A DNA stretch of 24,000 nt from Sulfuricella sp. (GCA_018336195.1 JAGXQV010000145.1:21995-45994); one strand, 5' to 3'. Positions 1 through 22,361 are shown, counted from the first letter of the stretch. A program made the numbers and translations. Notes: generated by a model not told the origin, from the letters alone.

Positions 1-1802
1 ACGTGGTCGCCCGGGTCGTCGAACGCAACGAAAGCGACGTTCTGGTGCGTTTCGACGTCAAGGATACCGGCATCGGCCTCACCCCCGAACAAATCGGCCG
101 CCTGTTCCAGAGCTTCTCGCAGGCGGACACCTCGACCACCCGCAAGTACGGGGGGACCGGGCTGGGCTTGGCAATCTCCAAGAAGCTCGCCGAACTGATG
201 GGCGGCGCGGTGGGCGTCGAGAGCGAGTACGGCAAGGGCAGCACCTTCTGGTTCACCGCCCGTCTCGGCATCGGCCAGGCCAAGGTGCGTTCGCTGCTGC
301 CCGACCCCGACCTGCGCGGCAGACGAGTGCTGGTGGTGGACGATAACGAAAGCGCCCGTAGCGTGCTCAACGATATGCTCGCCAGCATGACCTTCGAAGT
401 CGGCGACGCGAACTCAGGCGCTGCCGCGCTCGACGCGATCAAGCGCGGCGCGGCCAGCGGCAAGCCCTATGAAATCGTATGGCTGGACTGGCGGATGCCC
501 GGCATGGACGGCATCGAAACGGCACAAAGGATCAGGGAACTCGGCCTGGTTCCGCCTCCTCATCTGGTCATGGTGACGGCCTTCGGCCGCGAGGAAATCA
601 TCAGTCAGGCGACCAGCGCGGGTATCGAGGACGTGCTGATCAAGCCGGTCAACCCTTCGGTGCTGTTCGACACCGCCATGCGCGTGCTCGGCGGCGTGCA
701 GGAAGGGAAACGCGAAGCCGGCGACGCGCCCTCGCTGCTGGTGGAAAGCCTCGCCACCATTAATGGCGCGCGCATCCTGCTGGTGGAGGACAACGACCTC
801 AATCAGGAAGTCGCCAGCGAACTGCTCAAGGACGCCGGCTTCGTCGTGGACATTGCCGACAACGGCAAGATCTCCGTCGAGATGGTACAGCGCACCGCCT
901 ACGATCTCGTGCTGATGGACATGCAAATGCCGGTGATGGACGGGGTCACCGCCACCCAGGAGATTCGCAAACTGCCGGGATACGCCGAACTGCCGATCGT
1001 CGCCATGACCGCCAACGCCATGCAGCAGGACAAGGACCGCTGCCAGGAAGCGGGAATGCAGGATTTCATCACCAAGCCCATCGAGCCGGATCAGTTGTGG
1101 GCCACCCTCATCAAATGGATCAAGCCGCCCGAGAGCGGCGAGACGCCCGTCCCGACGCCGACCGCGCAGCCCTCCGCACCCGCCGCGCCGGCCAACGACC
1201 TGCCCAGCGGAATCGCCGGCCTCGACGTGGAATCCGGCCTGCGCCGGGTGCTCGGTAAGAAGTCGCTGTATCTTTCCATGTTGCGCAAGTTCGTTGCCGG
1301 CCAGCGCGCCGCACCTGCAGAAATCCGCGCCGCGCTCGATGCGCAGGACTGGGACACCGCGCAACGCCTGGCGCACACCGCCAAGGGGGTGGCCGGCAAC
1401 ATCGGTGCCGGCGCGATGCAGGAACTCGCTGCCGCCCTGGAACTGGCGCTCAAGGAACGCCGCCCGCGCCCCGAAACGGATGCGGCGCTGGCCCGACTCG
1501 CCACGCCCCTGGCTGCGCTGATCGAAGCCATCCAGGCGCAATTGCCTGAGGAAGCCGCCAAGGCGCAAGTCGCTGTCGATCTCCCGGCGCTGCGCGAAAC
1601 TTGCGCCAAGCTGGCAGCACTGCTGGCCGACGACGACTCGGAAGCCGGCGACCTGCTCGACCAGCACGCCGACTTGCTCAACACTGCCTTCCCCACCCAC
1701 TTCCGCCGTATCGACGACGCCGTGCGGGGATTCGATTTCGAAGCGGCCCTGGCCGCGCTCCAGGAAGCCGCCGTCGAGCGCGGCATCGAGGTGCCCACAT
1801 GA
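1..1802 (+). CDS. Hybrid sensor histidine kinase, C-terminal part (5' end lies outside the window): HATPase_c - REC - REC - HPt
   Basis: The frame is open from the window edge (track ORF 3..1802). G-box region [10 protein letters not shown]...[23 protein letters not shown]. Two receiver domains ([11 protein letters not shown]...[11 protein letters not shown] and [11 protein letters not shown]...[13 protein letters not shown]). HPt motif [13 protein letters not shown]. The stop TGA at 1800-1802 overlaps the next start (ATGA). Confidence 0.9.
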
Positions 1803-4237
1803 ACCGGATCGCAAAATTCGTCTCAACCCGAACCACCACCGCCTGGATACTGGCGATTCTGGCATCCATCGCCATCGGGGTGGCCGCCGGCGAGGTCGCG
1901 CGTCTCGCCGGGGAACGCACGCGCCTGTCATTGCTGCAAACGGAAGCGGACCGCGGCAGCCTCGACATGATGTCGCAAACCTTGAGTGGCAACATGATGG
2001 GTGCGCTGGGACTGCTCGGCCTGGTCGAGCGCGACATCAAACAGGAAGCGCGCGGGCGCATCGCGCCGAACGACCCGGATATCGTGGCGCTGCTGGAAAG
2101 CGTCGGGACCGCCCACGGCGCGAACGGCACCTTCCTGGTCGGCGAGAACGGCGTCGTCAACTCGTCCTGGGACAGCACCGGCAAGCCCTCGACCGGCCTC
2201 GACGTGAAATTCCGCCCCTATTTCCAGATGGCCAAGAAGGGCAAGGAAAGCATTTACGCAGCCGTCAGCCTGGCGACCGGCAAGCGCGCGCTGTATTTCG
2301 CCGCCCCCTTGTACGGCGGGACCAAGGCCGACTCGCCGACCGTCGGCGCGGTGGTGGCGCGCACCAACCTGGAACGGGTGGACAAGCTGCTTGCCGGGCG
2401 GGCCAGCATTGCGCTGCTGCTTTCCCCGCAGGGCGTGGTGTTCTCCAGCAGCCGCCCGGAATGGATCGGCCACCTCGCCGCCCAACCCACTCCCGAAAGC
2501 ATCAAGGCGATTCGCGACCTGAAACAGTTCGGCACCATGTTCGACAACAAGGAACCGCCGGTATTGCCGATAGCCGTCGCCCCCGGCATCACCGAAGTGG
2601 ACGGGAAACGCCATGCCGTCGCGCACGCCAAGTTGCAATGGAACGACCCCTATGGCGAGTGGACCATGATCTTGCTGGAAGACCTGACGCGCACGGCACC
2701 CATGGCCGAGCGCGTCTGGATCGGCGTGGGATGCGGATTGGGCATCCTGCTGCTGGGTATCCTGATTCTCCAGTTGCTGCGCGGCCACCATGCTCAAATC
2801 GCCGCCGCCCAGCAGTTGCGCCTGAATGCCGAGCAGCAGGAAGCGCTGGCGCTGCGCAAATCCCGGCTGGCCGAGGCCTCGCTGAAGCTCCAGCAGGCGA
2901 TGACCACGGCAACGCTGGCGCAGACCTTCCTCGACGAGGCCAACCGCCTGATCGGCGTATTGCAAGGTGCGCTGTACGTCGTCGAAGGGGAAGGCGAAGC
3001 GCGGTATCTGGCCCTGGCGGGAGGCTATGCCTGCTCGTCCGATCTGCCGGCGCACGTATCGTTCGGTGACGGCCTGCTCGGCCAGTGCGCGGTGGAATGC
3101 CGGACGATCCTGGTCGAAACTCCGCAAGAAGGCTATTGGCGGGTTTCCTCGGGACTCGGCGGCAGCCTGCCGCGGATGGTGGCGATCCTGCCGATCCTGC
3201 GTAACGAAACGCTGCTCGGGGTGGCCGAGATGGCGGCGCTGCGGCTGCTGGACAAAGACGAACTGGGAATTTTCGAAGATCTGTTGCCCCTGGTGGCGCT
3301 CAATCTGGAAATCCTCCAGCGCAACCGGCGCACCGAGGAAATAGCCGCTTCCTCGCTCGCCACCGAGCGCGAACTGGCGCGTATGGGCGAAATGGAGCGC
3401 TTCAACCGCCTCGCGCAAGGCCGCGAGCAGCGCGTCCTGGAACTCAAGCGGGAGGTCAACCGCCTCGCCGCGTCGCTGCATCGAGCAGCGCCCTACGAAT
3501 CCGCCGAGATTGCCGACCGGCATGGCGAGAGCGCCGCTATCGGCGCCGAACTAGCCGTCCAGCCCGCGGAACCAGGTGGTGACGAACCGCTTGCGCTGGA
3601 CAACCTGGTGGATATCGACGAACTGCAAACGCTGGTGACTCATTTCTGTGAAGCGGTGGGCATCGCCGCCGCGATCATCGACCTGCAAGGCAAGGTGCTG
3701 GTTTCCGCACGCTGGCAACGAGCTTGCACCGATTTCCACCGGGTCAATCCCGATACCTGCGCGCGCTGCATCGAAAGCGACACGCAACTCGCAGTGCACC
3801 TCCAGGACGGACAGGACTTCACCCTATACCGTTGCAAGAACGGCATGACCGATTGTGCCTCGCCGATCATCGTGGAAGGCCAGCACCTCGCCAACGTCTT
3901 CATCGGGCAATTCCACGCCGGTGCTCCCGACCTGGAATTCTTCACTCGCCAGGCCGAACAGTTCGGCTTCGACCGGGAAGACTATCTGGCCGCCATTTCC
4001 GCGGCGCCGGTGCTCGACGAAGCACGCCTTCCCGCAATCCTCGGCTTCCTCAGCGGATTCGCGCGGATGGTGGCTTCGCTGTCCCTGCAACGGCAACGCG
4101 CCGACGAGGCGCAGCAGAAACTTAGCCAGAATGCCGTAATCATCGAGCGCGAACGCCTCGCCGCCATCAGCCTGGCGGAGGATGCCGAACTGGCGCGCCG
4201 CGCCCTCGAAACCCGCCAATCGGAACCGCAGCCATGA
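1799..4237 (+). CDS. Membrane multi-sensor protein without a recognisable output domain: TM - Cache-type periplasmic domain - TM - GAF - coiled coil - PocR-type sensory domain
   Basis: I chose the ATG at 1799 (MNRIAKF...), preceded by GAGG at 1787-1790 and overlapping the upstream stop, over the Arg-rich 1601 extension. TM helices [17 protein letters not shown] and [22 protein letters not shown] flank about 270 aa carrying the Cache-like motif [11 protein letters not shown]...[23 protein letters not shown] motifs [11 protein letters not shown] and [19 protein letters not shown]. PocR-like Cys-rich block [25 protein letters not shown]...[30 protein letters not shown] saw no HisKA, HATPase, GGDEF, EAL, MCP-signalling or HTH motif. 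Confidence 0.8.
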
Positions 4238-7200
4238 ACCGTCTGATCCGCATACTCGAAAAACGCCGGCTGGCCACCAAGCTGCTGCTGGGGTTCGCCG
4301 CCATGCTGCTGCTCTCCCTTGCCTTGGGGGTGCATAGCATCCTCAACCAGCGCGCCCTCAACGTGGGAATTCAGCAGCTTTATGAAAACGAACTGTTGGG
4401 CGTTTCGGGAATCGAGGAAGCCCGCATCCATTTCGCCAGGATGGGACGCGCCTTGCGCCAGGCCATCCTGGCACCCAACGAGGGGGAGCGCAACGCGGCG
4501 CTCAAGCAACTGACCGACGCCGAAAGCGCGGTACGCAAGGAAATCGAAGCCTCGCGCAGCCGCATTTTCCTGGAAGAGAACAAGAAAAACCTGGTCAGAT
4601 TCGAAGCGCGCTTCGCGACCTACACGCGCAACGTCGAGCAGTCGCTGGCATTGCTCAGGAAGAACGATTTCCGCCCGGAAGCGGCAATCGCCTACGTTTC
4701 CACCGCGGAATTCCAGCGCACCGGACAGGAAACCGACGACGCGCTGGAAGACATCGTGCGCTTGAAGCAGGAAAGCACCCGGGAAGCCGCCCAGCACGCG
4801 CAAGCCTTCGCCGAGGAAGGCACGCGGATGACCGCCATTCTGCTGGGTAGCGGCACCCTGCTGGTGGTGGTGTTCGGTGCCTTGATCGGCCTGTCGATCC
4901 GCCGTCCCACCGAGCACATCCGCGAAGCCGTTAAGCAACTGGCCGCCGGTCAACTCGACGTAACGGTGCCCTACGCCGACCACCCCAACGAAATCGGCGA
5001 TCTGGCGCGCGCCGTCGCGGTGCTGCAAAACGAAGCGCGCCAGATGGACGCCCAGCGCTGGATCAAAACCCACCAGGCGGCGCTCTCCGCCGAATTGCAG
5101 GAAGCCGCCAGCTTCGCCGATCTGGCGCGCAAGCTGCTTTCGGGATTGGCGCCGCTTCTCAAGATCGGCCACGGCGTTTTTTATATCTACGAGGAAGAAC
5201 CGCGCCGCTTGCGCCTGCTGGGCAGCTACGCCTACCGCGAGCGCAAGCAGCTCAACCAGTATTTCGCCCTCGGCGAGGGGCTGGTGGGGCAATGCGCCCT
5301 GGAAATGACCCCGATTGTCATCAGCGAGCCGCCGCCGGATTACGTCCACATCGGCTCCAGCCTCGGCGCGGCGACACCGCGCACCATCGCCGTGCTGCCG
5401 GTAATCCGCAACGACAAGCTGCTGGCGGTGATCGAACTGGCGACCTTCGAGGTTTTCGACGCCAACCAGCAGGCGCTGCTCGACGGCCTGATGCCGCTGC
5501 TGGCGATGAGCCTGGAAATCCTGGAGCGCAACGTGCGCACCCGCCAATTGCTCGAAGAAACCCAGCGCCAGGCCGAAAGCATGGAAAAGCAGGCCTCCCA
5601 GTTGGAGGAACAGGCGGTCGAACTGGAAGCCCAACAAGGTGAACTGAAAGCCACCGAAGCCTGGTATCGCGGCATCATCGAATCCGCCCCGGACGGCATG
5701 CTGGTGATCGACCGGCACGGCACCATCATTCTCGCCAACCCGCAGATCGAAACCATGTTCGGCCACGGCATCGGCGAACTCCCCGGCAACCCCATCGAAA
5801 TCCTGGTGCCGCCCGCGATACGCGAGGAACACGTGGGCTGGCGCGACGCTTTCATTGCCGACAGCAAAACCGGCCGGGCCAACCGGGAATTGCGCGGCGT
5901 CCGCCCCGATGGCTCGGAGTTTCCGGCCGAGGTCGGCCTGTCCAAGTTACCCGATGTAGGGGGACGCGGCCTGTGCGTGTGCGCCTCGGTGCGCGACATC
6001 ACCGAACGCCAGCAAGCCGCACAGCACCTGTCTGCCCTGGAAGAACGCAGCCGCATGATTCTCAGCTCGGTCAGCGACGGCATCGTCGGGCTCGACCTGG
6101 ACGGACGGATGACCTTCACCAATCCAGCCGCCCCAGCCATGCTCGGTTTCAACGAAGCTGAAATGCTCGGTGAACGCATCCATTCCCTGGTCCACCACCA
6201 CTACCCAGACGGCCGCGAATTCCCCCGCGAGGAATGCCGCATGTACCGCACCACCATCGACGGACAAGCGCGCACCGTGGACGATGAAGTGCTGTGGCGC
6301 AAGGACGGCAGTCCGTTCCCGGTCGAGTATTCGACCACCCCGGTACACAAGGATGGCGCACTGGTCGGCACGGTGGTGACCTTCCGCGACATCACCGAAC
6401 GCAAACAGGCGCAGGCGGAAGTCCTGCGCGCCAAGGAAATCGCCGAGGAGGCCACCAAGACCAAGAGCGACTTCCTCGCCAACATGAGCCACGAAATCCG
6501 TACCCCGATGAACGCCATCATCGGCATGTCGCATCTCGCCCTGCAAACCCAGCTCGACAAGCGGCAGCGCAACTACATCGAAAAGGTCAACCGCGCCGCC
6601 GCCAACCTGCTCGGCATCATCAACGACATTCTCGACTTCTCCAAGATCGAGGCCGGCAAGATGAGCATGGAGCGCATCGACTTCCGCCTGGAGGACGTGA
6701 TGGACAACCTCGCCAACCTGGTGGGGATGAAGGCCGAGGACAAGGGCCTGGAACTGTTGTTCAACGCCGCCCCCGACGTGCCCACCGCGCTGGTCGGCGA
6801 TCCGCTACGGCTCGGGCAGATCCTCATCAATCTGGGCAACAACGCGGTGAAATTCACCGATGCCGGGGAAATCGTGGTTGGTGTCGAAAAAGCGGCGGAC
6901 CATCCCGACGGCGTGGACCTGCACTTCTGGGTCAAGGATTCCGGCATCGGCATGACCCCCGAGCAGTGTTCCAAGATGTTCCAGTCGTTCAGCCAGGCCG
7001 ACGCCTCGACCACCCGCAAATACGGGGGCACCGGACTGGGGCTGGCGATCTCCAAGAACCTGGTGGAAAAAATGGACGGGCGCATCTGGGTGGAAAGCGA
7101 GGCGGGCAAAGGCTCGACCTTCCATTTCCACGCCCGTTTCGACGTGCAGGCCGAACCCATGGCGCGGCGGGTATTCCGCGCCGAAGAACTGCTTGGCGTG

Positions 7201-8646
7201 CGGGTGCTGGTGGTAGACGACAATGCCTCGGCACGCGAGATCCTGTCCGGCATGGCCCGCAATTTCGGGCTGGAGGTCGACGTGGCCGGGGACGGCCAGC
7301 AAGCCCTGGCGATGATCGGCGAGGCGGAACGGAAAGAACTCCCCTACGATCTGGTGCTGATGGACTGGAAGATGCCGGTGATGGACGGCGTCGAAACCAT
7401 GCTGCGCCTGCAGGAAGAACAACTGGCGCGAGTGCCGGCGGTCATCATGGTGACCGCCTACGGGCGCGAGGAGGCTCTGGGTTCCGCCGAGCAACGCGGG
7501 GTGGAACTCAAGACCGTGCTGACCAAGCCGGTGACCTCCTCGACGCTACTCGAAGCCATCGGCGAGATGCTGGGCAAGGGGCTGGTCGCAGATGATCGCG
7601 TCCACGACAAGGTTGATCGCGGCGCTACCGCCATGGATAGCCTCAAGGGTGCGCGGGTGCTACTGGTCGAGGACAACGATATGAACCAGGAACTGGCCAG
7701 CGAACTGCTTGGCCAGGCCGGCATGGAAGTGGTGATCGCCAACCACGGCCAGGAAGCGCTCGATATCCTGGCACGCGACGCCCGCTTCGACGGGGTGCTG
7801 ATGGATTGTCAGATGCCGGTGATGGACGGCTACACCGCCACCCGCGAAATTCGCAACAACCCGGCCTTCAAGAATTTACCGATTATCGCCATGACCGCCA
7901 ACGCAATGGCCGGCGACAAGGAGAAGGTAATGGAAGCCGGGATGAACGACCACATCGCCAAACCGCTCGACGTCGAGGAAATGTTCGCCACCCTCGCCAA
8001 ATGGATCAAGCCCGCCGGCACAGCCCCCGCCAGCAGCGCGCCTGCCCCGGCGGCGGCGCAGGGCGGCCTGCCCACCCTGCCCGGCATCGACATCAAGGCG
8101 GGACTCGCCACCACCATGAACAACGAAAAGCTCTACACCCGCCTGTTGGTGAAATTCCGCGACGGCCAGAGCAATTTCGCCGCATTGTTCCGCGCCGCCC
8201 AGGCCGATGCCGACCCCACCGCAGCGGCGCGCGCCGCCCATACCCTCAAGGGTACCGCCGGCAACATCGGCGCCAAGGGCGTACAAGCGGCAGCGGGAGA
8301 ACTGGAATCCGCCTGCAATCAAGGTGTTCCCACAGAGCGCATCGACGAACTGCTTAACCATGTCCTCGCCGAGCTGGCGCCGCTTATCGCCGGCTTGGCG
8401 CAAGTTGAAGGAGCGGAACCGCTTGCCGTGGAAGCACCGGGGACAACGTCGGTCGACCGGGCACGCCTCACCGGGTTGCAGGAAAAACTCAAGGCCCTGC
8501 TCGCCGACAGCGACACCGAAGCCAGCGACGTACTCGACGAACTCCGGGAACTCGCCAAGGGCACGCCGCTGGCAGCCAGCCTGAAGAAGGTTGCCGATGC
8601 CATAGCGGCCTACGACTTCGACGCGGCGCTGGAAGCCCTGGGCTGA
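4234..8646 (+). CDS. Hybrid sensor histidine kinase: 4HB_MCP-like N-terminal sensor - TM - HAMP - GAF - coiled coil - PAS - PAS - HisKA - HATPase_c - REC - REC - HPt
   Basis: 1470-aa ORF whose ATG overlaps the upstream stop (ATGA at 4234-4237). [26 protein letters not shown]...[26 protein letters not shown]...[19 protein letters not shown]. Two PAS blocks each ending ...[18 protein letters not shown]-box [21 protein letters not shown]-box [14 protein letters not shown]. Receivers [13 protein letters not shown] and [13 protein letters not shown]. HPt [13 protein letters not shown]. Confidence 0.93.
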
Positions 8647-8663: not shown

Positions 8664-10112
8664 ATGACACCCGCTCCAGGCAGCCACAGACTCTACGTGG
8701 CGGGCATCGGCGCTTCCGCCGGTGGGCTGGAGGCGATGTTGCCGCTATTCGCCCAGTTGCCTGCGACCGGCCGAATCGCCTACGTGGTCGCCCAGCACAT
8801 GGCGCACGACGCCCACAGCGAGCTGGTGGCCCGCCTGATCGGACGGGAATCCCGGCTGCCCCTGGCCGTCGCCCGCGACGGCGAAACACTCCAGGCCGAC
8901 CGGGTTTACCTGGTTCCCGCCGGCAAGGACGGCGTGGTGCTCGGCAACGCCCTGACCCTGCAAGAACCTTCCCCGCAATTTCTGTCCCACCCCTCGATCA
9001 ATGCGCTGTTCGCCTCGCTCGCCCACACCTACCGGGACAACGCCATCGGCATCGTGCTTTCCGGCACGGGATTCGACGGCGTCGCAGGCTGCCGGGCAAT
9101 CAAGGCTGGCGGCGGACTAACCTTCGCCCAGGATCCCGGCGAGGCCAAGTTCAACGGTATGCCGACGGCGGCAATCGAAGCCCGCCTGATCGACCGGGTA
9201 CTCCCGGTGGCAGCCATCGGCGGCGCGTTGGCGGGCCTCTTTCCGGGAACTGAGGTACCACCGCCGACCGCCGTCGCCAAGCCGCCGGTTGAATCGGCGC
9301 TTCCCGACGCGGCACTCCGCGAACTCGAATACCTAGTGCGCCTGGTGCATGAAGCGACGGGCATCGATTTCTCCGGCTACAAGGAAGAAACCCTGCTGCG
9401 CCGCCTGGAAAAGCGCAAAGCCCTCCTCGGCGTCACCTCGTCGGAAGCCTACCTGGCATTAATCCACCGCGACACTGACGAATTGCACACCCTGCAACAC
9501 CAGTTCCTGGTATCTCTCTCGTCCTTTTTCCGTGACCGCGAAGCGTTCCGCGAGCTGGAGCGCGCCCTGGCCGCCCTGCTCGCCCGGAAAACAGCGGGCG
9601 AGCCGCTGCGCGTCTGGGTGCCGGGATGCGCCTCGGGCGAGGAACCCTACACCCTGGCAATCGTGATCAGCGAATTGCTCGGCAACGACCGCGCGCGCCA
9701 CGCGGCAAACATCATTGCCACCGACCTCAACGACGAAGCGCTGGAAATGGCCCGCACCGGCCTATACCGCCACACGGCTTTCCGCGAAATGGAAGCGTCC
9801 CTGCAGAACCGCTACTTCGTCCCCAAAGGCCAACACTTGGCAGTATCGGAGACGCTGCGGAAAATGGTGTCCTTCGAGAAGCGCGACGTGCTCGACGGGC
9901 CGCCGGCCCAAGACCTCGACCTCATCAGTTGCCGCAACCTGCTGATCTACCTGAAAAGTGCCTTGCAGGACCGGCTGATTGCCGACTTTCACCGCGCCCT
10001 GCGACCCAACGGCCTGCTCTTCATCGGCCAGTCCGAATCGCCGGGACTGACCGGCAACGCGCTATTCGTCCCGGTGGACCGCGACCAGCGCCTGTTTCGC
10101 CGCCGTCCCTGA
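8664..10112 (+). CDS. CheB-CheR fusion protein (protein-glutamate methylesterase domain plus protein-glutamate O-methyltransferase domain), with no receiver domain
   Basis: The N-terminal half carries the CheB catalytic-triad contexts GIGASAGGLEAM (Ser), VVAQHM (His) and SGTGFDG (Asp). The C-terminal half carries the CheR SAM-binding motif VWVPGCASGEEPYTLAI and DLISCRNLLIYL. It starts 17 nt after the kinase stop. Confidence 0.9.
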   Translation: MTPAPGSHRLYVAGIGASAGGLEAMLPLFAQLPATGRIAYVVAQHMAHDAHSELVARLIGRESRLPLAVARDGETLQADRVYLVPAGKDGVVLGNALTLQEPSPQFLSHPSINALFASLAHTYRDNAIGIVLSGTGFDGVAGCRAIKAGGGLTFAQDPGEAKFNGMPTAAIEARLIDRVLPVAAIGGALAGLFPGTEVPPPTAVAKPPVESALPDAALRELEYLVRLVHEATGIDFSGYKEETLLRRLEKRKALLGVTSSEAYLALIHRDTDELHTLQHQFLVSLSSFFRDREAFRELERALAALLARKTAGEPLRVWVPGCASGEEPYTLAIVISELLGNDRARHAANIIATDLNDEALEMARTGLYRHTAFREMEASLQNRYFVPKGQHLAVSETLRKMVSFEKRDVLDGPPAQDLDLISCRNLLIYLKSALQDRLIADFHRALRPNGLLFIGQSESPGLTGNALFVPVDRDQRLFRRRP

Positions 10113-10633: not shown

Positions 10634-12247
10634 TCACGGCAAGGCTGGCAGGCCCAGTTCATTGAGGAAGGCATTGTGTCTGTCCCGCGCATCCTTGATG
10701 TTCTGCTCCAGGGCGACTAGCTCGGTATTGATTTCCTGCAAATCGACCTCAGCCTCGCCCACCGCCGTGCTGATATAGCGCGAGATATTCAGGTTGAAGT
10801 CGTTCTTCTCGATCTCTGCCATGTCCACCCGTCGGGCGTAGCGGGGCTCTTCCTTTCGGAATTGGTAGGTGCCGATGATCTTGGCGATGTGCTCCTCGCT
10901 CAATTGATTCTGGCGTTTGCCTTTCACGAAGTGCTCGGCGGCATTGATGAAGAGCACGTCGTCTGGCTTCTTGCACTTCTTCAGCACCAGGATACACACC
11001 GGGATGCCGGTGGAGTAGAAGAGATTGGCGGGCAGGCCGATGACGGTGTCGATGTGGCCGTCCTTGAGCAGCTTGGTGCGGATGCGTTCCTCGGCGCCGC
11101 CACGGAACAGCACGCCGTGGGGCAGGATGATCGCCATCACGCCTTCGTCCTTGAGGAAGTGGAAGCCGTGCAACAGGAAGGCGAAGTCGGCGGCGGATTT
11201 GGGGGCGAGGCCGTGGCTTTTGAAACGCACGTCGTCGGCCAGCGCGTCGGTCGGCTCCCAGCGGTAGCTGAACGGTGGATTGGCGACGACGGCGTCGAAG
11301 CTCGGCTTCTTCGCCGGGTTCGGCTCGCGCATCATGTCCCACTCGTTGAGCAGGGTATCGCCGTGGAAGATGTCGAATTCCGTGTCCTTCACCCCGTGCA
11401 GCAGCATGTTCATGCGGGCCAGGTTGTAGGTGGTGATGTTCTTTTCCTGGCCGAAGATTTTGCCGATGGCGCCGCCCGCCTTTGCCACCTTCTTGCGCAC
11501 GTTGAGCAGCAGCGAACCGGAACCGCAGGCGAAGTCCAGCACGCTCTCCAGCCGCTTTTTGGTCCCGGTTTTCGGTTCCTGGCTGTCCAGCGTGACGATG
11601 GCCGAAAGGATGTCGGAAATCTGCTGCGGGGTGTAGAACTCGCCCGCCTTCTTGCCCGACCCGGCGGCAAACTGGCCGATCAGGTATTCATAGGCATCGC
11701 CCAGCGCGTCGATGTTCGTGGAGAACTCCGCCAGCCCTTCGGCAATTTTCTGGATGATGGTGCACAGCTTGGCGTTCCGGTCCTCATACTTCTTGCCCAG
11801 CTTGGGAGAACTCAGGTCGATCTCGGAGAACAGGCCCTGAAAGGTGCTCTCAAAGGATTCCGTTTCGATGTATTTGAAGCCCGCTTGCAGCGTGTTGAGC
11901 AGCTCGCCGTTCTGGGTGCGCGCCAGGTTGGCGATGCTGTTCCACAGGTGCGCGGGCTGGATGACGTAATGCACCTTGCGCCGCATCTGCTTCTCGAACG
12001 CCGGGATGTCGTCCACATTGTTCGCATACCACAGCGCCAGCGGCACCTTGCGGGTGTCGCCGCCTACATCCGGGTAATCCCGCCCCAGCTCCTTCTTCGC
12101 CGCCGTCTCGTAGTTATCCGAGAGGTAGCGCAGGAAGAGGAAGGACAGCATGTAGTCGCGAAAGTCGTCCGCATCCATCGCCCCGCGCAGTTGGTCGGCG
12201 ATGCTCCAGAGGGTGTTGCCCAGTTGTTTTTGGTTGGTTTCGGTCAT
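10634..12247 (-). CDS. hsdM: Type I restriction-modification system, DNA methyltransferase subunit M (N6-adenine)
   Basis: 537 aa. AdoMet motif VLDFACGSGSLLLNV and catalytic motif VVANPPFSYRW. The N-terminal HsdM_N-like segment LWSIADQLRGAMDADDFRDYMLSFLFLRYLSDNYE resembles, from memory, the EcoR124I/type IC style. Confidence 0.95.
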   Translation of the reverse strand: MTETNQKQLGNTLWSIADQLRGAMDADDFRDYMLSFLFLRYLSDNYETAAKKELGRDYPDVGGDTRKVPLALWYANNVDDIPAFEKQMRRKVHYVIQPAHLWNSIANLARTQNGELLNTLQAGFKYIETESFESTFQGLFSEIDLSSPKLGKKYEDRNAKLCTIIQKIAEGLAEFSTNIDALGDAYEYLIGQFAAGSGKKAGEFYTPQQISDILSAIVTLDSQEPKTGTKKRLESVLDFACGSGSLLLNVRKKVAKAGGAIGKIFGQEKNITTYNLARMNMLLHGVKDTEFDIFHGDTLLNEWDMMREPNPAKKPSFDAVVANPPFSYRWEPTDALADDVRFKSHGLAPKSAADFAFLLHGFHFLKDEGVMAIILPHGVLFRGGAEERIRTKLLKDGHIDTVIGLPANLFYSTGIPVCILVLKKCKKPDDVLFINAAEHFVKGKRQNQLSEEHIAKIIGTYQFRKEEPRYARRVDMAEIEKNDFNLNISRYISTAVGEAEVDLQEINTELVALEQNIKDARDRHNAFLNELGLPALP

Positions 12248-12250
12248 GGT

Positions 12251-13147
12251 TTATGGCTTGCCCTCTTGCGGTGGGGGTAACGTTTTGGTGCGCTCTGCCA
12301 GCATCTTATCCTCGGATTTCACTCGGCGTTCCAGCTTCTTCAGGTCTTCTTCGGCAGCCAGTTTTTCGGGCTGAATACCGCGCTGCCCTAGCATGTCGCG
12401 CACGCTTTCGTTGTTCTTAACGTGTTCGTGCGTAATCGCGGGTTCGCCGCGCAAATTGTCTTGTCGCACGTTGTGATTCGTCATTTCGGTGGCGAGATTT
12501 TTGGCGGCAATGGTCAGCGTAGGCAAAAAATCAGCCAGCGGACGGTTGGCTACAATGCCGTATTTATTTTTCATGGCTTGCGTGGTGTTTCCACCAAACA
12601 GTGCCTGATCCCCCCGTGATCGAATCCGGCCAAAACCAGCATCGTCCACACCGCGCTCGTAAATGTTTTGCGAGAGTGCCTTTTCCGACTCCTTGAGCCG
12701 GTCACGTGCTTCCATGCGCGCTTGCAGGCGCATGCGGTCTTCAATTAGCTCTTGCTTGCGGGTTTGCACAGCAAAGTAGCTTTGCGCAAAGGCAACCTCA
12801 GGCTTGCGCGGATCGCCGTTCTGGGCAATCAGGTAACAGGCATAGCGGGTGAGCATGAAATCATCAATTTCCCGCTCCCCGCCCTTGCCATGGACGATCA
12901 ATTTCGTGACGCCACGAAAATGATCTGAAACCGCATGTCCAGAGGCTTCGCATGCCTGCATAGCGCGCTGGATGGCGGTTTGAAAGTTCTCCCAGCGCGC
13001 ATAGCCCAAGGGAACTTGCAAATCGCGGGCAAACCAGAATTCGACGCCCTCGGCATCGGCACGCTGTGCACCAGCCTCCAGACTACTTTGCAAGGCTTTG
13101 AGTGGCTCATCCATGGTGTTTCCTCCGCTGGTTTTGTACTTGTTCAT
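12251..13147 (-). CDS. dinD: DNA damage-inducible protein D (DinD) family protein. The start is uncertain (ATG 13147, or ATG 13114 = MDEPLK...).
   Basis: 298-aa ORF. EFWFARDLQVPLGYARWENFQTAIQRAMQACEASGHAVSDHF...LTRYACYLIAQNGDPRKPEVAFAQSYFAVQTRKQE matches my recollection of the conserved core of E. coli DinD (SRYACYL..QNGDP.KP....Q.YFA.QTR). The stop lies 3 nt before the hsdM start. Confidence 0.82.
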   Translation of the reverse strand: MNKYKTSGGNTMDEPLKALQSSLEAGAQRADAEGVEFWFARDLQVPLGYARWENFQTAIQRAMQACEASGHAVSDHFRGVTKLIVHGKGGEREIDDFMLTRYACYLIAQNGDPRKPEVAFAQSYFAVQTRKQELIEDRMRLQARMEARDRLKESEKALSQNIYERGVDDAGFGRIRSRGDQALFGGNTTQAMKNKYGIVANRPLADFLPTLTIAAKNLATEMTNHNVRQDNLRGEPAITHEHVKNNESVRDMLGQRGIQPEKLAAEEDLKKLERRVKSEDKMLAERTKTLPPPQEGKP

Positions 13148-13358
13148 GCATTTGAACTGTCAAGGATTCCTTGACAGTTGCCGCCGAGTCCAACTCCCCG
13201 TCCTCGAAGATGTTCTTCAGGTGCAGGGAGATGTTCTGCTTCGTGGCATCGAAGAGTTCCGCCATCTCCAACTGCGTCAGCCAGACGGTCTGCTCCTGCG
13301 CCCGCAGCTTGATCTGGCTGCGGCCGTCTTCGGTTGTGTAGAGAATCAGGTCGTTCAT
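13107..13358 (-). pseudogene. Truncated N-terminal remnant of a RhuM-family (virulence protein RhuM-like) gene
   Basis: The first ~68 aa, MNDLILYTTEDGRSQIKLRAQEQTVWLTQLEMAELFDATKQNISLHLKNIFEDGELDSAATVKESLTVQ, follow the typical RhuM N-terminus (..LY.tedG...WLtq.qmaeLF....qNIs.HlkNIf..gEL....tvKe.LtVq). The ORF then diverges (MHEQVQNQRRKHHG*) and stops at 83 aa. Full-length family members are roughly 300+ aa, and the expected ...EG.R.V.R....YNLD...VGYRV core is absent. Its 3' end overlaps the dinD start region. Confidence 0.7.
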
Positions 13359-13363
13359 GGTGT

Positions 13364-14575
13364 CTACGCTGGTGCCCGGGGGGATACAGGTGTGGTTGCT
13401 AATTCTGCCACTGCAGGGCGGAATGAATAGCGGTCCAGGAAAACGTTGAGAATCTCGCGGAACATCTTCTTGTCAGTGGAGGTGATCGATTCAGACTCGA
13501 AGACCGAATACTTGGCATGACTTCTGACATTCAAAAAACGTGCGTAGAGGGCCTTATTGGCATGCCCTTCAAAACATGTAGAGATGTGTTGTCGGCCAAA
13601 GAATATGGCGGTCTTTTCGAGAATGCTACGGAGCGAGTTGAAATGATATTGTGAAATCTTTCCAGATTTCGCCACCGCACGCAGCTCGTCCAAGGCCGCG
13701 ACATGATGCAGAAAGGGAGACTCGCCGGTATCTTCGAGAGTGTATGTCTGCGCCTCATTCAGCCGGTGCAGAATGTATGCCTTCTTCCTAATATTGTCTT
13801 TGCCCTCAGGGGGTCTCTTCCCTGTAAGTTCATTGAACATCACATTGAAGAACAAACCATGGTGCGTAGAAATTACGACCTTCAGCTTATTGTTTTCATT
13901 TTTCAGCAATCCACCTAGGCTAGCCGCAACGGCAATGGTGTTGTGCTCATCCAGTGACGAGATGGGGTCATCGATATAAACATACTTTACCCAATCGTAA
14001 GGCGCCCCTTTTTCAGCTTCGATGGCGAGTTGGAGTATTGACAAGAAGAAGCACCAGATAAAAATGTTTTCCTCGCCTCTGGAGATTTTGATGTCCTCAA
14101 GCCGCCTGCGATTTCCGGCCACCGTCACGTCGCGATGAAAGCGTATCTCGGCCGCAGCGTAGTCAATTCTGAAATCAAAGTCAGCGTGCTGATGAAGAAG
14201 TGGGCGAATGAGGTCTTCGATGCCCATTCCGTCAAGGCCATCAAAGAAGCGAGACTGAGCCTTAAACTTAATTTTGCGTTCCCGGTCCTCATTGAGGTCA
14301 TTGTCCCAATCAAAGAGGTCTTCAGTAAAGGCATTGAAGTAAAGAGTGTCCCGTTTCTCCTCCTTCTTGCCGAGATCTTTAAATTCCATCGACAGGCGAG
14401 TTTTCCCCACGCCATTGTGTGCGAACACCAGAACGAAATCATTTCCTGAAACCGGTGTAGTGCCTTTCCGATTGGCCGTCTTCTTGCGTTTGTTAACTCC
14501 CTTTAAATCCCTGCGGAGCTTTTTCGCCAGTGACTCCAGCGATCTGAATTTGTTGATGGTTGTTATCTTGCTCAT
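13364..14575 (-). CDS. PrrC-like ABC/AAA_13-type ATPase, a candidate anticodon nuclease
   Basis: 403 aa. Walker A FAHNGVGKTRLS. ABC-signature-like ISRGEENIF. Walker B/D-loop YVYIDDPISSLDEHN. H-switch VVISTHHG. The C-terminal region has R316-x3-E320 (LRSILEK) and H353 (NVRSHAKY). This spacing mirrors the R320/E324/H356 catalytic residues I recall for E. coli PrrC (396 aa). The gene is embedded in a type IC-like R-M locus directly after hsdS (ATGA overlap at 14572-14575). That it is a real CDS is near certain. The confidence given here is for the functional call. Confidence 0.62.
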   Translation of the reverse strand: MSKITTINKFRSLESLAKKLRRDLKGVNKRKKTANRKGTTPVSGNDFVLVFAHNGVGKTRLSMEFKDLGKKEEKRDTLYFNAFTEDLFDWDNDLNEDRERKIKFKAQSRFFDGLDGMGIEDLIRPLLHQHADFDFRIDYAAAEIRFHRDVTVAGNRRRLEDIKISRGEENIFIWCFFLSILQLAIEAEKGAPYDWVKYVYIDDPISSLDEHNTIAVAASLGGLLKNENNKLKVVISTHHGLFFNVMFNELTGKRPPEGKDNIRKKAYILHRLNEAQTYTLEDTGESPFLHHVAALDELRAVAKSGKISQYHFNSLRSILEKTAIFFGRQHISTCFEGHANKALYARFLNVRSHAKYSVFESESITSTDKKMFREILNVFLDRYSFRPAVAELATTPVSPRAPA

Positions 14576-15804
14576 GATTGGATGGCATCAGGGGATGGAA
14601 ATAGCTGCTGCATCAGACCCTCCTTGTGAGACTTGAGGGTATCGAGCTTCTCGATTTCAGCGGCGATCGTGTTGTCGAGGCTCGTGAGGCAGTCTGCGAT
14701 CTTCCTCTGTTCGGCCAATGTCGGGAAAGCGCTTTGCCAGCTCTCGATTGCCCCTTTAGTGATGTGCATGATGCCAAGCCCATTCGTAGTCTTGGCCTTC
14801 ATGTTTTCAGTTTCATTTTCGAGGGTGATGAAGAGGAACTGCTTGTCGATTCCACGCTGCTCAATCACTTTCCAAATGTGGTAGTGATAAATGGATTTTT
14901 CGCCGCGCCAGATGCGGGGTCCAAAGGACGCGGACCACGCATAAAGCAGGTCGCCCTTCTCACAATACTTCGTCTCATCCAACTCAAGGTCTGAGTAATA
15001 CCAAGCGTTGCTGGTGAAGAAGTTCCCAACACGCAGAACTGGGTATTTCCCAGATTCGAGCAGTTCTTCCTGTTTGTAGGCTCGGCCGTTGTAGAAAATC
15101 GCGGCTTGGCCCAAGGCCATCCTTTTCCACTCCCCGGCGTTTTGGAATTCTGGGAAGCGGAGGAGGGGTTGGGTTTCGCGTTCGCGGGGGAAAAGCTGTT
15201 GCATCAGCCCTTTTTTATGGGTCTTGAGCGCGTCCACTTTCCGCGCTTGCGCGGCCATCAGTTCGTCCACTGAACTCAGGCACTCGGCGATTTTTTGTTG
15301 TTCGGCGGGGGATGGAAGCGCGACTGAGAATGAGAGGAAGGTTTCAGCATGGATGCGTCTTGCCTTTCTACTTCCATCGGCAGTTTCACCCAACCTTTCG
15401 TAAAAATCTCTGCGCTTGACGTATTCCAAAAGGAACACGGGGTTGAGCCCGCCAGTGATGTCAAAGCATGGCAAATCGACCGTTGACTCAAAGTTGTCCA
15501 AGCTGGGGGGAATGATGCCGAAGGCTTGGTTCAGAAAATCAAGTTTGCTGTAAATAAACTGTCCGGTTTTGCGCCGGAAATACTGAGTGTTGATGCTGCC
15601 TTGAATGGCATCGTTCTTCTCGAAAACTCCGTTTCCCCAGAGCTTAACGGTAATCTTCTTTGCGACGTTGCCCTTACTTCCTGGTAGTCGGCTTTCACTC
15701 AGAAATTCGCCAAGCTGTCTTTCTTTCCACCCCTCTGCCCCCCGAAACTCAGGAAACCTCCGCTTCGGCACCAGCGCGGACTTTTTGCTGCGCGCTCCGC
15801 TCAT
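14572..15804 (-). CDS. hsdS: Type I restriction-modification system, specificity subunit S
   Basis: 410 aa with two variable target-recognition regions. They are separated and followed by repeated conserved regions AEQQKIAECLSSVDELMAAQARKVDALKTHKKGLMQQLFP and AEQRKIADCLTSLDNTIAAEIEKLDTLKSHKEGLMQQLFP. RFPEF motifs precede each TRD. ATGA overlaps occur at both ends. Confidence 0.93.
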   Translation of the reverse strand: MSGARSKKSALVPKRRFPEFRGAEGWKERQLGEFLSESRLPGSKGNVAKKITVKLWGNGVFEKNDAIQGSINTQYFRRKTGQFIYSKLDFLNQAFGIIPPSLDNFESTVDLPCFDITGGLNPVFLLEYVKRRDFYERLGETADGSRKARRIHAETFLSFSVALPSPAEQQKIAECLSSVDELMAAQARKVDALKTHKKGLMQQLFPRERETQPLLRFPEFQNAGEWKRMALGQAAIFYNGRAYKQEELLESGKYPVLRVGNFFTSNAWYYSDLELDETKYCEKGDLLYAWSASFGPRIWRGEKSIYHYHIWKVIEQRGIDKQFLFITLENETENMKAKTTNGLGIMHITKGAIESWQSAFPTLAEQRKIADCLTSLDNTIAAEIEKLDTLKSHKEGLMQQLFPSPDAIQS

Positions 15805-16811
15805 GCCGCTCCTCCCAATTCCTGCGCCAGCAGTTCATGCAGTTTGGCCTGGATGAGTTTTTTGTCGGGCAATTGCAATTGGTATTGGGCGATCAGCGTG
15901 GGCGAGAGGTTGCGCGACAGGGCGTATTCCACCACTTCCTGGTCGTGGTCACAGCATAGCAGAACGCCGATGCTGGGGTTCTCGTGCGCTTTCTTGATGT
16001 CGCGGTCGAGCGCTTCAAGATAGAAATTCAGTTGCCCCATGTGCTCGGGGCTGAATTTGCCGATTTTGAGTTCAAAAGCCACCAGCGCAGAAAGGCCGCG
16101 ATGGTAAAAGAGCAGGTCAATGAAAAAATCCTGATTGCCGACTTGCAGGCGGAATTTTTCGCCCATGAAGATGAAATCCGCGCCCAGTTCCAGAATGAAG
16201 GCCTTCATGTTCGCCACCAGGGCGCGTTGCAGGTCGCCTTCACTGTGAGATTCGGGCAAGCCGAGAAACTCAAGGACGTAACTGTCTTTGAAGGCGCCGG
16301 CGATCAGCGGGTTCAATTCTCTCGCCACCGGTGAGAGTTTTGCGCCGGTCACACTGCGCTCAAAATGGGTAGCGTCAATTTGACGCTCCAGTTCCCGCTT
16401 GCCCAAACCCTCGGCCAAGGTCAATTGCAGGTAGTAAGCGCGTTCTTCCGCCGACTTGCAGCGCGAAAAGATGATGGTGTTGTGCGTCCAGGGCAATGCT
16501 CGCGCCAGTGCCGAGCGTTTTTCATCGCCTCGATAGGTCTCGTAAAACTGCTTCATGCGCCACAGGTTCTTGTCGCTGAAACCTTTGGCCTCCGGGGCGT
16601 GTTGGGCGATGTAGCGTGCCAGTTCGGACACCACGCCTTTTCCCCAGACTTCGCGTTGTACTTTTTCGCTGATGGTTTGGCCGATGTGCCAATACAACTC
16701 CATCAGGGCCGTATTGGCCTGTGCAAAGATTTTTTGCCGCGCTTGCTGAATCTGCCCTAGCAATTCGCGGAAGGCGTTTTCGGTGGGGTCGGTGTTGTTC
16801 AGCTTATTCAT
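15801..16811 (-). CDS. YhcG/DUF1016-family PD-(D/E)xK nuclease-like protein
   Basis: The N-terminal helical region LMELYWHIGQTISEKV....WGKGVVSELARYI and LPWTHNTIIFSRCKSAEERAYYLQ is typical of the DUF1016 N-domain. The C-terminal nuclease core FFIDLLFYHRGLSALVAFELKIGKF carries an intact D...E-x-K. I chose the start at ATG 16811 (MNKLNN...), which overlaps the hsdR stop by 8 nt. The track ORF extends to 16856. Confidence 0.82.
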   Translation of the reverse strand: MNKLNNTDPTENAFRELLGQIQQARQKIFAQANTALMELYWHIGQTISEKVQREVWGKGVVSELARYIAQHAPEAKGFSDKNLWRMKQFYETYRGDEKRSALARALPWTHNTIIFSRCKSAEERAYYLQLTLAEGLGKRELERQIDATHFERSVTGAKLSPVARELNPLIAGAFKDSYVLEFLGLPESHSEGDLQRALVANMKAFILELGADFIFMGEKFRLQVGNQDFFIDLLFYHRGLSALVAFELKIGKFSPEHMGQLNFYLEALDRDIKKAHENPSIGVLLCCDHDQEVVEYALSRNLSPTLIAQYQLQLPDKKLIQAKLHELLAQELGGAA

Positions 16812-19800: not shown

Positions 19801-19881
19801 GTCAGTGATATCCGAGCGGTATTCGTATTTGAGCCCCGTCAGTTTATCGATGAAGCTTTGTTCGATTTGTTGTTCAATCAT
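16804..19881 (-). CDS. hsdR: Type I restriction enzyme, endonuclease/translocase subunit R (type IC-like)
   Basis: I chose the start at ATG 19881 (MIEQQIEQSFIDKL...). The 34-aa upstream extension in the track looks non-coding. Nuclease motif RYDVILLINGVPVVQIELKT. Helicase motif I IWHTTGSGKTLTS and motif II VFIFDECHRSQFG. QLFIVSNRDRSYYFANN resembles my recollection of the EcoR124I HsdR region QLFVISNGTDTRYFANT. Confidence 0.95.
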   Translation of the reverse strand: MIEQQIEQSFIDKLTGLKYEYRSDITDRAALEKNFRDKFEALNRVRLTDSEFARLLDEIVTPDVFAAAKTLRSINAFTRDDDTPLNYTLVNLKDWCKNHFEVINQLRINTDNSHHRYDVILLINGVPVVQIELKTLGVNPRRAMEQIVEYKHDPGNGYTKTLLCFMQLFIVSNRDRSYYFANNNARHFAFNADERFLPIYEFADEDNRKITQLDEFAERFLKKCDLGRIISRYMVLLAGEQKLMIMRPYQVYAVQHMVKCIAEDNGNGYIWHTTGSGKTLTSFKASTLLKENDHIHKCVFVVDRKDLDRQTREEFNKFQEGCVEENTNTAALVRRLLSEDYADKVIVTTIQKLGLALIESSKRNKQRSKNGQATYKEQLEALKDKRIVFIFDECHRSQFGENHKAIKDFFPQAQLFGFTGTPIFEANATLQKIEDTQASMRTTEDLFQKQLHAYTITHAIEDGNVLRFHIDYFKPKPKNEKEAKPVGKGAPKADEPKPPFSKAAIVGEILTKHDAATGGRRFNAILATASINDAIEYHALFKTLQADKQTADPDYKPLNIACVFSPPAELAENEEAKKDIKQLSSDLPQEQEDNKVEPEKKKQALEVILADYNARYGTNHRLSEFDLYYQDVQKRIKDQQWPNADYPAAQKIDITIVVDMLLTGFDSKFLNTLYVDKNLKHHGLIQAFSRTNRVLNGTKPYGNILDFRQQQDSVDAAIALFSGEKTGEQAREIWLVDKAPVVIKKLEAAVQKLDDFMKSQGLSCTPSAVANLKGDAARAAFISHFKEVQRLKTQLDQYTDLTGENKASIEQVLPEDNLRGFKGQYLETAKKLREQRVKSGKEGDGPGADDPAEQIDQLDFEFVLFASAVIDYDYIMGLIARFSQKGPGKSKMTREELIGLIGADAKFMNERDAIAEYIGTLKAGEGLSETAIREGYTRFKAEKNAQELAAISAKHGLATAALQSFVDGILDRMIFDGEQLSDLYAPYDLGWKERTHKEIALMQDCAPYLVKRADGRDISGLSAYE

Positions 19882-20228
19882 TGTTGGAGCTCTGCAATCT
19901 TGGTACCGCCCTTGGCAACACATGACACCGGTAAATTTCCACAAATAGCCGCCTCTTACAATCATTGAGCATTCTGAATGCATTTCACTTCAGGATGTTC
20001 ACTGCTAACACCGTTTGGCCGCATAACCACGAAGCACAGCGGACGACGGATGGCGAAGCTGGCCGACGGGTCCGGTGGAGTAGATTGTTGGGACAGCTTG
20101 CCATTGGTACTGGCGCCGGTCACGCAACCGCCATTCCAGTGAATGTCTGCTCTAGGAAAATCGGTAAATGACGGCTTATGGCCGACAGCAGTCATGCTAT
20201 CACATTGGCATGACCGTCCGCTCCGGCC

Positions 20229-22079: not shown

Positions 22080-22361
22080 GTCACTTCTCCCTGTTTAATA
22101 TCATCCATTATCGGCGCCGCCACCGTGGAAAAGCAACAAAGCTTTACCACTGTAAGTTGGCAGCAAAAGTGGGATAGGACCATGCAATATTTTTTCTTCG
22201 CGCTCACCAAAATCATGCGGAAACGCGATCTGTTCCTCATTACAACTCACTTAAACTCACAAAAAGGTATGCCGAATGAATAACTCCTTGATTTGACCTT
22301 TACCGGCATGATTCATGACGCTATGCTTTGTGGACATCCGCAAGGAACATGGAGAAACACA
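22080..22361. promoter_or_regulatory. AT-richer divergent intergenic region between the REC-REC-HK gene and glgP. It presumably carries both promoters, and the glgP RBS is at 22351-22354.
   Basis: 282 bp with no convincing ORF, flanked by divergently oriented genes. GGAG lies 7 nt upstream of the glgP ATG. I could not place a convincing -35/-10 pair with proper spacing. Confidence 0.3.

Follow-up and report, generated by a model that had tools for sequence, protein, structure and literature searches.

What role does a membrane protein with three sensory domains and no output domain play when its gene lies between the genes for two hybrid histidine kinases? The question is raised by a 24,000-nucleotide stretch of DNA from Sulfuricella sp. 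(GCA_018336195.1 JAGXQV010000145.1:21995-45994), referred to here as the window, in which an 812-aa sensor protein is encoded on the plus strand at positions 1799-4237. An initial annotation, made from the sequence alone, had proposed that this protein looks like a dedicated accessory sensor that feeds signals into one or both kinases by protein-protein contact. The annotated features were confirmed, and the interpretation gained support in part. As far as sequence can tell, the protein has two properties of an accessory sensor: it lacks an output domain of its own, and its co-operonic linkage with a kinase is conserved. From gene order and fusions in related genomes, we infer that it is probably a kinase-less transmembrane co-sensor that forms a complex with one or both neighbouring hybrid kinases, mainly that encoded downstream.

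The sensor gene and its product

The gene begins with an ATG at 1799, preceded 5 nt upstream by a Shine-Dalgarno-like GAGGTG, and ends with a TGA at 4235-4237. Alignment showed that the homologues share an MNxIAxFV N-terminus, so the ATG at 1799 was taken as the real start, and an upstream TTG at 1601 was ruled out by the same motif. Both junctions proved to be ATGA overlaps, as initially annotated: the stop of the upstream kinase (HK1) overlaps the sensor start at 1799-1802, which would be consistent with translational coupling, and at 4234-4237 the sensor stop shares bases with the start codon of the downstream kinase (HK2). The GC content at third codon positions (GC3) over the sensor region favours the plus frame, as for an intact coding frame. 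Minus-strand open reading frames (ORFs) at 414-1931, 1928-3523 and 3982-5832 were rejected as genes; they are shadow ORFs with a mirrored GC3 pattern and no Pfam match.

A sequencing frameshift that split the sensor from the downstream kinase, a caveat of the initial annotation, was ruled out. A 176-kb metagenome contig from ENA and a Logan contig, which come from independent assemblies, contain the identical sensor gene and junction. In 20 other PocR-bearing members of the family that were aligned, the protein stops at the same position and its last ~50 residues are kept. Furthermore, HK2 matches its orthologues from residue 1, with its own start, transmembrane helix and periplasmic 4HB domain.

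From the N-terminus, the protein is comprised of a first transmembrane segment (TM1), a DctB-like periplasmic double-Cache domain, a second transmembrane segment (TM2), a GAF domain, a coiled coil, a PocR domain and a terminal helix of 50-70 aa, all encoded on the plus strand. TM1 (residues 12-37; 1832-1909) and TM2 (residues 303-330; 2705-2788) are the two hydrophobic segments identified by hydropathy, and they bracket the Cache domain (residues ~45-298; 1931-2692). The GAF domain (residues 369-504; 2903-3310) was identified by Pfam and by BLASTP matches to HK1 and HK2. It is followed by the coiled coil or signalling helix (residues 505-559; 3311-3475), in which the alignment shows a conserved 22-residue motif, and by a linker (residues 560-599; 3476-3595) that is variable in the alignment and of low confidence in the model, with a predicted local distance difference test score (pLDDT) below 50 at residues 572-594. 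The PocR domain (residues 603-762; 3605-4084) is supported by Pfam (E 2.7e-46) and by conservation, and the C-terminal helix or tail (residues 763-812; 4085-4234) carries a near-invariant SLAEDAE motif.

The AlphaFold model, built with 111 aligned homologues, has a mean pLDDT of 87.9 and follows the same order. TM1 lies in a helix at residues 12-61 that leads into the double Cache, the TM2 helix is continuous to residue 365, an alpha/beta GAF fold occupies residues 370-480, and a helix of 74 residues spans 486-559. After the disordered linker at 560-599, PocR is modelled at 600-740 and a single terminal helix at 741-808. Outside the Cache, GAF and PocR domains the model contains helices alone and no other globular part.

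The proposed stack of Cache, GAF and C-terminal PocR domains was upheld, although Pfam alone supported only two of the three above its cut-offs. PocR (PF10114) scored 157.7 bits against a cut-off of 23.9 and covered profile positions 2-161 of 162; GAF_2 (PF13185) scored 40.9 bits at residues 369-504 (cut-off 28.6), and GAF (PF01590) scored 26.8 (cut-off 22.4). The dCache_1 match at residues 91-237 reached 30.5 bits, under the cut-off of 45. The Cache assignment comes from structures: a phmmer search of the PDB matched this segment to the sensor domain of Vibrio cholerae DctB (3by9; E 1.2e-11), and it also matched S. meliloti DctB (2zbb; E 2.6e-5). Foldseek aligned the modelled domain with 3by9 at a TM-score of 0.76 (on target), with DctB structures at 0.66-0.76, and with the double-Cache domains of PctA, Mlp24 and Tlp3. 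The motifs FRPY, YAA and SPQG are invariant in the Cache alignment. On sequence and model evidence, the periplasmic domain is predicted to be a two-module double-Cache homologous to that of DctB.

No output domain was found, in agreement with the initial annotation. Models for kinase, cyclase, phosphodiesterase, phosphatase, MCP-signal and DNA-binding domains gave no match at Pfam E<=1 or NCBIfam E<=0.1, and at the same thresholds there was no HisKA or other DHp domain and no HATPase_c. Nor was a cryptic output domain revealed by the AlphaFold model, by Foldseek or by a search of PDB sequences at E<=1; the protein ends 50 residues past PocR with nothing globular after that domain. With no MCPsignal match in Pfam, it is by that criterion not a methyl-accepting chemotaxis protein (MCP). 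The AraC-type PocR transcriptional regulator model NF047788 reached 39.7 bits against a cut-off of 500, with only profile positions 6-108 aligned, and no helix-turn-helix was matched by Pfam or NCBIfam. Similarly, neither database gave a match to an H-NOX or NosP (FIST) domain.

PocR had been noted as Cys-rich, and five of its cysteines (617, 643, 654, 657 and 679) are each kept in at least 96 of 98-99 aligned homologues; a sixth, at 686, is variable. H647 and H706 are near-invariant in about 98 homologues. The near-invariant C617, C643, H647, C654, C657, C679 and H706 suggest a metal, Fe-S or redox site, encoded at window positions 3647-3835 (residues 617-679) and 3914-3916 (residue 706). The GAF domain has a G-x-G-L-[LV]-G-Q-C-A motif whose cysteine (C430; 3086-3088) is present in 106 of 111 sequences. 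The mean column majority is 0.81 in PocR, 0.78 in the tail, 0.68 in Cache and 0.60 in GAF. The terminal helix is thus among the best-conserved parts of the sensor, yet nothing follows it.

Conserved gene order in the family

Both neighbours are hybrid kinases, as had been proposed. HK1 is represented in the window by its C-terminal 599 aa (3-1802, plus strand), in which Pfam identified HATPase_c, REC, REC and Hpt domains; the full gene on the source contig (L001 5709-10004) encodes 1431 aa with the architecture dCache_1-HAMP-GAF-HisKA-HATPase-REC-REC-Hpt. HK2 (4234-8646, plus strand; 1470 aa) has the architecture 4HB_MCP-HAMP-GAF-PAS-PAS-HisKA-HATPase-REC-REC-Hpt, assigned by Pfam, and by synteny it is the partner conserved most. 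Beyond the scope of the initial annotation, the sensor and kinases were found to be part of a larger cluster with a CheB-CheR fusion (CheBR), a REC-HD-GYP regulator and a REC-REC-kinase.

Relatives of the sensor were sought among 5.8 billion proteins, and 488 were found. No output domain was present among the 120 relatives listed. Their database names include 'PocR ligand-binding domain-containing protein' and 'DctB'; the latter labels are over-annotations. Five length classes were distinguished: Cache-GAF alone (~520 aa), Cache-GAF with PAS (~700 aa), Cache-GAF-PocR (~800 aa, the class of the window sensor), a form in which an inserted PAS separates the GAF domain from the coiled coil (~936 aa), and a form with this PAS insert plus hemerythrin between the coiled coil and PocR (~1070 aa). 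From these classes, the constant core of the family is Cache-transmembrane-GAF, with PocR, PAS and hemerythrin as optional cytoplasmic add-ons. The hemerythrin insert was seen in orthologues P0019, P0044, P0057 and P0064 (alignment columns ~745-890), and its presence may point to family members that sense O2, iron or NO.

Four neighbourhoods were retrieved by exact protein look-up: the window's contig, a Sterolibacterium metagenome-assembled genome (MAG), a 3-Mb genome and a Sulfuritalea MAG. Their order is a kinase or kinase-like gene, the sensor, the 4HB kinase, CheBR, a 4HB-HAMP-GAF-PAS gene without output, REC-HD-GYP and REC-REC-kinase, with 4-bp overlaps. A one-genome-per-species scan added 80 loci and brought the total to 81. 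The loci span Beta- and Alphaproteobacteria, Magnetococcales, Geobacter and Geothrix, and carriers include Rhodocyclaceae, Sterolibacterium, Sulfuritalea, Rhodoferax, Duganella, Propionivibrio, Chitinilyticum, Magnetospirillum and Terasakiella.

The target gene is complete in 78 of the 81 loci, and a kinase core is absent from 75 of these 78 homologues. Co-occurrence of the sensor and downstream kinase genes in other genomes, a check suggested with the initial annotation, was evident: a 4HB_MCP-HAMP gene lies directly downstream of the sensor in 67 of 74 loci. A recognisable kinase core is present in 54 of these 67 downstream genes, and the exact 4-bp overlap in 50. A REC-HD-GYP regulator about 75% identical to the one in the window's cluster was found in 45 of the 81 loci, and CheBR in 22. 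The kinase-less PocR form accounts for 20 loci in the genome scan. The short Cache-GAF form keeps the 4HB kinase even without an adjacent HK1-type kinase. Judged by gene order, the downstream 4HB_MCP-type kinase appears to be the universally conserved partner, and the upstream kinase a partner only in the PocR-bearing subtype. The proposal that the sensor serves one or both kinases would then apply to the downstream kinase throughout, and to the upstream kinase within that subtype.

Module exchange, mechanism and competing explanations

In three complete proteins, the sensor and a hybrid-kinase core form one polypeptide. The protein at locus L086 (2128 aa) has the Pfam-confirmed order Cache-GAF-PAS-PocR-HisKA-HATPase-REC-REC-Hpt, and those at L057 and L076 are Cache-GAF-PAS-kinase proteins. 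A Cache-GAF-PAS-PocR-kinase fusion like that of L086 is also present at L081, where the gene is cut by a contig end. The terminal helix of the sensor leads directly into PAS or HisKA (DHp) in fused relatives.

The PocR module was also found on the neighbouring protein. At four loci (L015, L019, L026 and L036), the protein upstream of the 4HB protein is a short Cache-GAF form, and the coiled-coil/PocR/tail module is part of the 4HB protein instead. The module lies between PAS and HisKA at L015, L019 and L026, and no kinase core was seen in the L036 protein. L015 was confirmed by Pfam, and the modules of L015 and L019 were aligned to that of the window; the relocated module is 47-56% identical over about 280 residues, SLAEDAE tail included. 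At L015 the tail ends about 35 residues ahead of HisKA. Gene pairing, overlap, fusions and movement of the PocR module together strongly link the sensor to its neighbours at the level of sequence.

Natural splits of kinases were also observed. At L003 (18352-21142), the kinase is divided into a 4HB-HAMP-GAF-PAS protein and, after it, a HisKA-HATPase protein; at L066 (9965-15724), the kinase core is a protein of its own that comes after a Cache-GAF-PAS sensor. Fission, like fusion, seems to occur often in this system.

An exhaustive profile-free library search with sensor residues 520-812 returned 2916 clusters at E<=1e-30. Among 115 top representatives that reach the tail, 82 extend by over 250 aa further and 9 stop at the same point as the sensor. 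Nine longer representatives were scanned, and in each of them PocR is followed by PAS, HisKA-HATPase-REC-Hpt or SpoIIE. Because the tail continues into such domains, the terminal helix would be an output-feeding signalling helix in most relatives. Signalling helices (S-helices) nearly always connect a sensory domain, PocR being one of those named, to a catalytic domain (PMC1592074). Given this rule, a terminal signalling helix implies a partner in trans, and the free helix is likewise expected to have a partner because conservation within the sensor is highest in PocR and the tail.

A further link is provided by the GAF domain. With its flanking helices, the sensor GAF is 39% identical to that of HK1 (E 1e-33) and 33% identical to that of HK2 (E 2e-30) by BLASTP, and the cysteine of the G-Q-C-A motif is common to the sensor and both kinases. 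The same GAF subtype is present in extra kinase-less membrane proteins of related clusters, and it is the sole cytoplasmic domain common to all membrane components of the cluster.

The following mechanism is proposed. Translationally coupled genes would yield the sensor in fixed proportion with its neighbours. It would assemble in the membrane with the downstream 4HB_MCP-HAMP-GAF kinase as its main partner, and in the PocR-bearing subtype the upstream Cache-HAMP-GAF kinase would probably also take part. Assembly would use the family-wide parts, namely the Cache domain, the transmembrane helices and the shared-subtype GAF with its flanking helices, while PocR and the terminal helix may add further regulatory contact or conformational input. 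Ligand or redox state would be read at three sites, in Cache, in GAF and in the Cys/His-rich PocR, and would alter the conformation of the long helices, the strongly conserved terminal helix included. This change would shift the kinase/phosphatase balance of the partner. Phosphoryl groups would then pass by a His-Asp-His(Hpt) route to the cluster's REC-HD-GYP regulator, and the output would be hydrolysis of cyclic di-GMP (c-di-GMP) and a lower c-di-GMP level. The cluster pathway probably controls c-di-GMP.

Several points weigh against the sensor being a co-sensor of this kind. Conserved adjacency and fusion speak for functional linkage and not for a contact mechanism; the physical complex and its interface, the sign and direction of regulation, the ligands and the phosphorelay route are steps that we infer. 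The sensor has no HAMP domain, and both flanking kinases have one. The loci were annotated by BLASTP with the window's own domains and by simple ORF calling, with Pfam used for spot checks. Among the loci, the sensor was never found naturally fused to the 4HB kinase itself; the core in the fused relatives is of the HK1 type and 62-65% identical to that of HK2, which points equally to the upstream kinase lineage. The same fusions would fit an inhibitory decoy, in which a core-less kinase paralogue heterodimerises non-productively with the HK1-type kinase through GAF and coiled coil, and titrates kinase activity rather than relaying signals of its own. The GAF of the sensor is closest to that of HK1, and the genes of the two proteins overlap by 4 bp. 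However, we consider a decoy unlikely: conservation peaks in PocR and the tail, which is unexpected for a mere decoy, all three sensory domains are kept intact, and the short Cache-GAF form is kept with the 4HB kinase where no HK1-type kinase adjoins. A decaying kinase remnant without present function, left by a recent truncation or by a sequencing or assembly frameshift, would account for a sensor that ends exactly where the fused relatives run into PAS or HisKA. This explanation is scarcely credible in view of the agreement between the ENA and Logan assemblies, the stop and tail kept in the 20 other PocR members, the kinase-less state of nearly all complete homologues, the start, transmembrane helix and 4HB domain that the downstream protein has as its own from residue 1, the high column conservation throughout the sensor, and the intact-frame GC3 pattern. 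It is in effect refuted by the conservation data.

The CheB-CheR fusion raises a different explanation, a chemoreceptor-like array. Kinase-less receptors of the Cache-GAF-PocR, 4HB-HAMP-GAF-PAS and HAMP-GAF types would share HisKA-type hybrid kinases through their common GAF, and CheBR would adapt the array by methylation/demethylation or deamidation. The output would again be c-di-GMP hydrolysis by REC-HD-GYP, in a chemoreceptor-style system with no MCP, CheA or CheW, of a previously unrecognised kind. Consistent with this, no MCP-signal, CheA or CheW gene is present in the neighbourhoods retrieved, and Geobacter loci L009 and L012 have tandem kinase-less transmembrane-GAF proteins beside one kinase and CheBR. 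CheB-CheR is found in 11 of 11 PocR-type loci with enough flank versus 8 of 35 short-type loci (Fisher p 6e-6), and a Q-Q pair opens the GAF helix in 6 of 15 4HB kinases of CheBR loci versus 1 of 38 others (p 0.001, a value that ignores phylogeny), but the loci are phylogenetically related and the associations are therefore not independent. Furthermore, the sensor itself shows no CheBR-linked Q/E pattern (13/20 vs 33/53, p = 1), the MCP methylation-helix domain is absent from every cluster protein, and L015 and L019 have the PocR/tail module but no CheBR. An array is accordingly judged improbable, and the co-sensor complexed chiefly with the downstream kinase is preferred.

Some sequence features of these proteins were recorded separately. 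The motif [IV]-S-x-x-L-Q-[QE]-A-x-S-F at HK2 residues ~285-295 (window ~5086-5118), also seen in 4HB proteins of loci L003-L087, comes directly after HAMP as the opening of the GAF helix and shows a partial match to the consensus for MCP methylation. The LQQ of the sensor (residues 364-366) was considered as a CheR/CheB site and rejected; its likeness to MCP sites is partial, and its second residue is Q or R regardless of CheBR. Similarly, the tail SLAEDAE does not, by eye, fit the [EQ][EQ] consensus of a methylation site. The two loci in Geobacter MAGs (L009, 1443-9153; L012, 5728-16201) contain tandem runs of 4-6 kinase-less membrane proteins with the same GAF subtype, made up of 4HB-HAMP-GAF-PAS, Cache-GAF-PocR and HAMP-GAF members and adjoined by a single hybrid kinase and CheBR.

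The wider cluster and known systems

The CheB-CheR fusion (methylesterase and methyltransferase, without REC) is encoded at 8664-10112 on the plus strand (Pfam). A REC-HD-GYP regulator with intact HD and GYP motifs precedes HK1 on the source contig. The REC-REC-HisKA-HATPase protein is encoded at 20325-22079 on the minus strand (Pfam, BLASTP) and is orthologous to the cluster-closing gene of related genomes (41-46% identity by BLASTP). The cluster is split between cheBR and this gene by a low-GC type I restriction-modification island (10.6-20 kb). The island (10634-19983, minus strand) has a GC content of 0.50-0.60 against 0.62-0.68 in the flanks, and encodes HsdM (10634-12247), a Bro-N protein (12251-13147), an AAA_13 ATPase (13364-14575), HsdS (14572-15804), a YhcG/DUF1016 PDDEXK nuclease (15801-16856) and HsdR (16804-19983), all on the minus strand. 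Related genomes hold a 4HB-HAMP-GAF-PAS gene and an HD-GYP regulator at this position. No tRNA genes were found in the window as island boundaries. Within 22257-24000, the ORFs at 22257-22997 (minus), 22328-23584 (plus) and 23358-23981 (minus) had no Pfam match. Upstream of the window, the signalling cluster is adjoined on the opposite strand by a gene for a giant DUF7933/CLIPPER repeat protein of more than 2385 aa (L001 1-4027) with a weak IPTL-CTERM sorting signal.

If the co-sensor reading is correct, bacteria would widen the input range of a phosphorelay by adding whole multi-domain sensors as separate, translationally coupled polypeptides, and PocR, PAS and hemerythrin modules would be free to move between sensor and kinase in evolution. 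The family would offer a natural system for signalling-helix transmission in trans rather than within one chain, and the CheB-CheR fusion without a nearby MCP would allow the methylation substrate of an orphan CheBR to be asked about directly. The hosts are denitrifying, iron-cycling and magnetotactic bacteria (Sterolibacterium, Sulfuritalea, Rhodoferax, Geobacter, Geothrix, Magnetospirillum and Magnetococcales), in which control of c-di-GMP by redox or small-molecule cues would be ecologically relevant. Cultivable hosts of the family exist, among them Propionivibrio dicarboxylicus DSM 5885, Rhodoferax sp., Paramagnetospirillum and Terasakiella.

Full-text literature searches found no description of the sensor family or cluster, and returned only general papers on PocR and S-helices. 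The initial annotation had called the arrangement seldom characterised, which is right for this sensor family but not for the principle of an accessory sensor, as H-NOX, NosP, LuxP and UhpC illustrate. Accessory sensors of kinases are well known as a concept, and the family is a variation on that theme.

There is a functional likeness to H-NOX/HnoK and NosP/NahK, in which an output-less sensor is encoded beside a (hybrid) histidine kinase and controls autophosphorylation by direct contact. These phosphorelays reach c-di-GMP enzymes, HD-GYP or EAL response regulators included. The window shares the placing of a sensor without output next to a hybrid kinase, and direct contact is proposed here too. 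H-NOX and NosP are small soluble single-domain haem proteins, whereas the window sensor is unrelated in sequence, spans the membrane, has 812 aa and three sensor domains, and is a paralogue of the kinases' input regions. UhpC/UhpB and LuxP/LuxQ resemble it in role, with a separate ligand-binding protein that passes its state to a histidine kinase in a protein complex. However, UhpC is homologous to transporters, and LuxP is a binding protein of the periplasm; neither is homologous to the sensor, and neither has a cytoplasmic GAF/PocR part or a kinase-type signalling helix.

The wider cluster recalls Wsp, which comprises the WspA receptor, the hybrid CheA WspE, the CheR WspC, the CheB WspF and the REC-GGDEF protein WspR. 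A kinase-less membrane receptor, a hybrid kinase, CheR and CheB, and a c-di-GMP response regulator are brought together in one cluster in both cases. Unlike Wsp, the window cluster has no MCP-signal, CheA or CheW; its kinases are of the HisKA type, its CheB and CheR are fused and lack REC, and its regulator carries HD-GYP (degradation) and not GGDEF. In RpfC/RpfG, a Hpt-bearing hybrid kinase signals to a REC-HD-GYP regulator, and RpfC senses by its own membrane domain. The cluster's Hpt hybrid kinases and REC-HD-GYP regulator are similar, but RpfC/RpfG has no separate multi-sensor protein and no CheBR. DctB shares the homologous periplasmic double-Cache domain described above; unlike DctB, the sensor lacks a kinase core and has a different cytoplasmic part.

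Homologues with a kinase core include the PocR hybrid kinases (such as L086, L015, L019, P0129 and P0143), which carry the same coiled-coil/PocR/tail module at 47-56% identity. L086 also has the Cache-GAF N-terminus of the sensor, and the clusters of L015, L019 and L086 have the same REC-HD-GYP regulator. The tail of these kinases runs into PAS or HisKA-HATPase-REC-Hpt, whereas the window sensor stops at the end of the tail. By homology, the sensor corresponds to the input half of PocR-type hybrid kinases.

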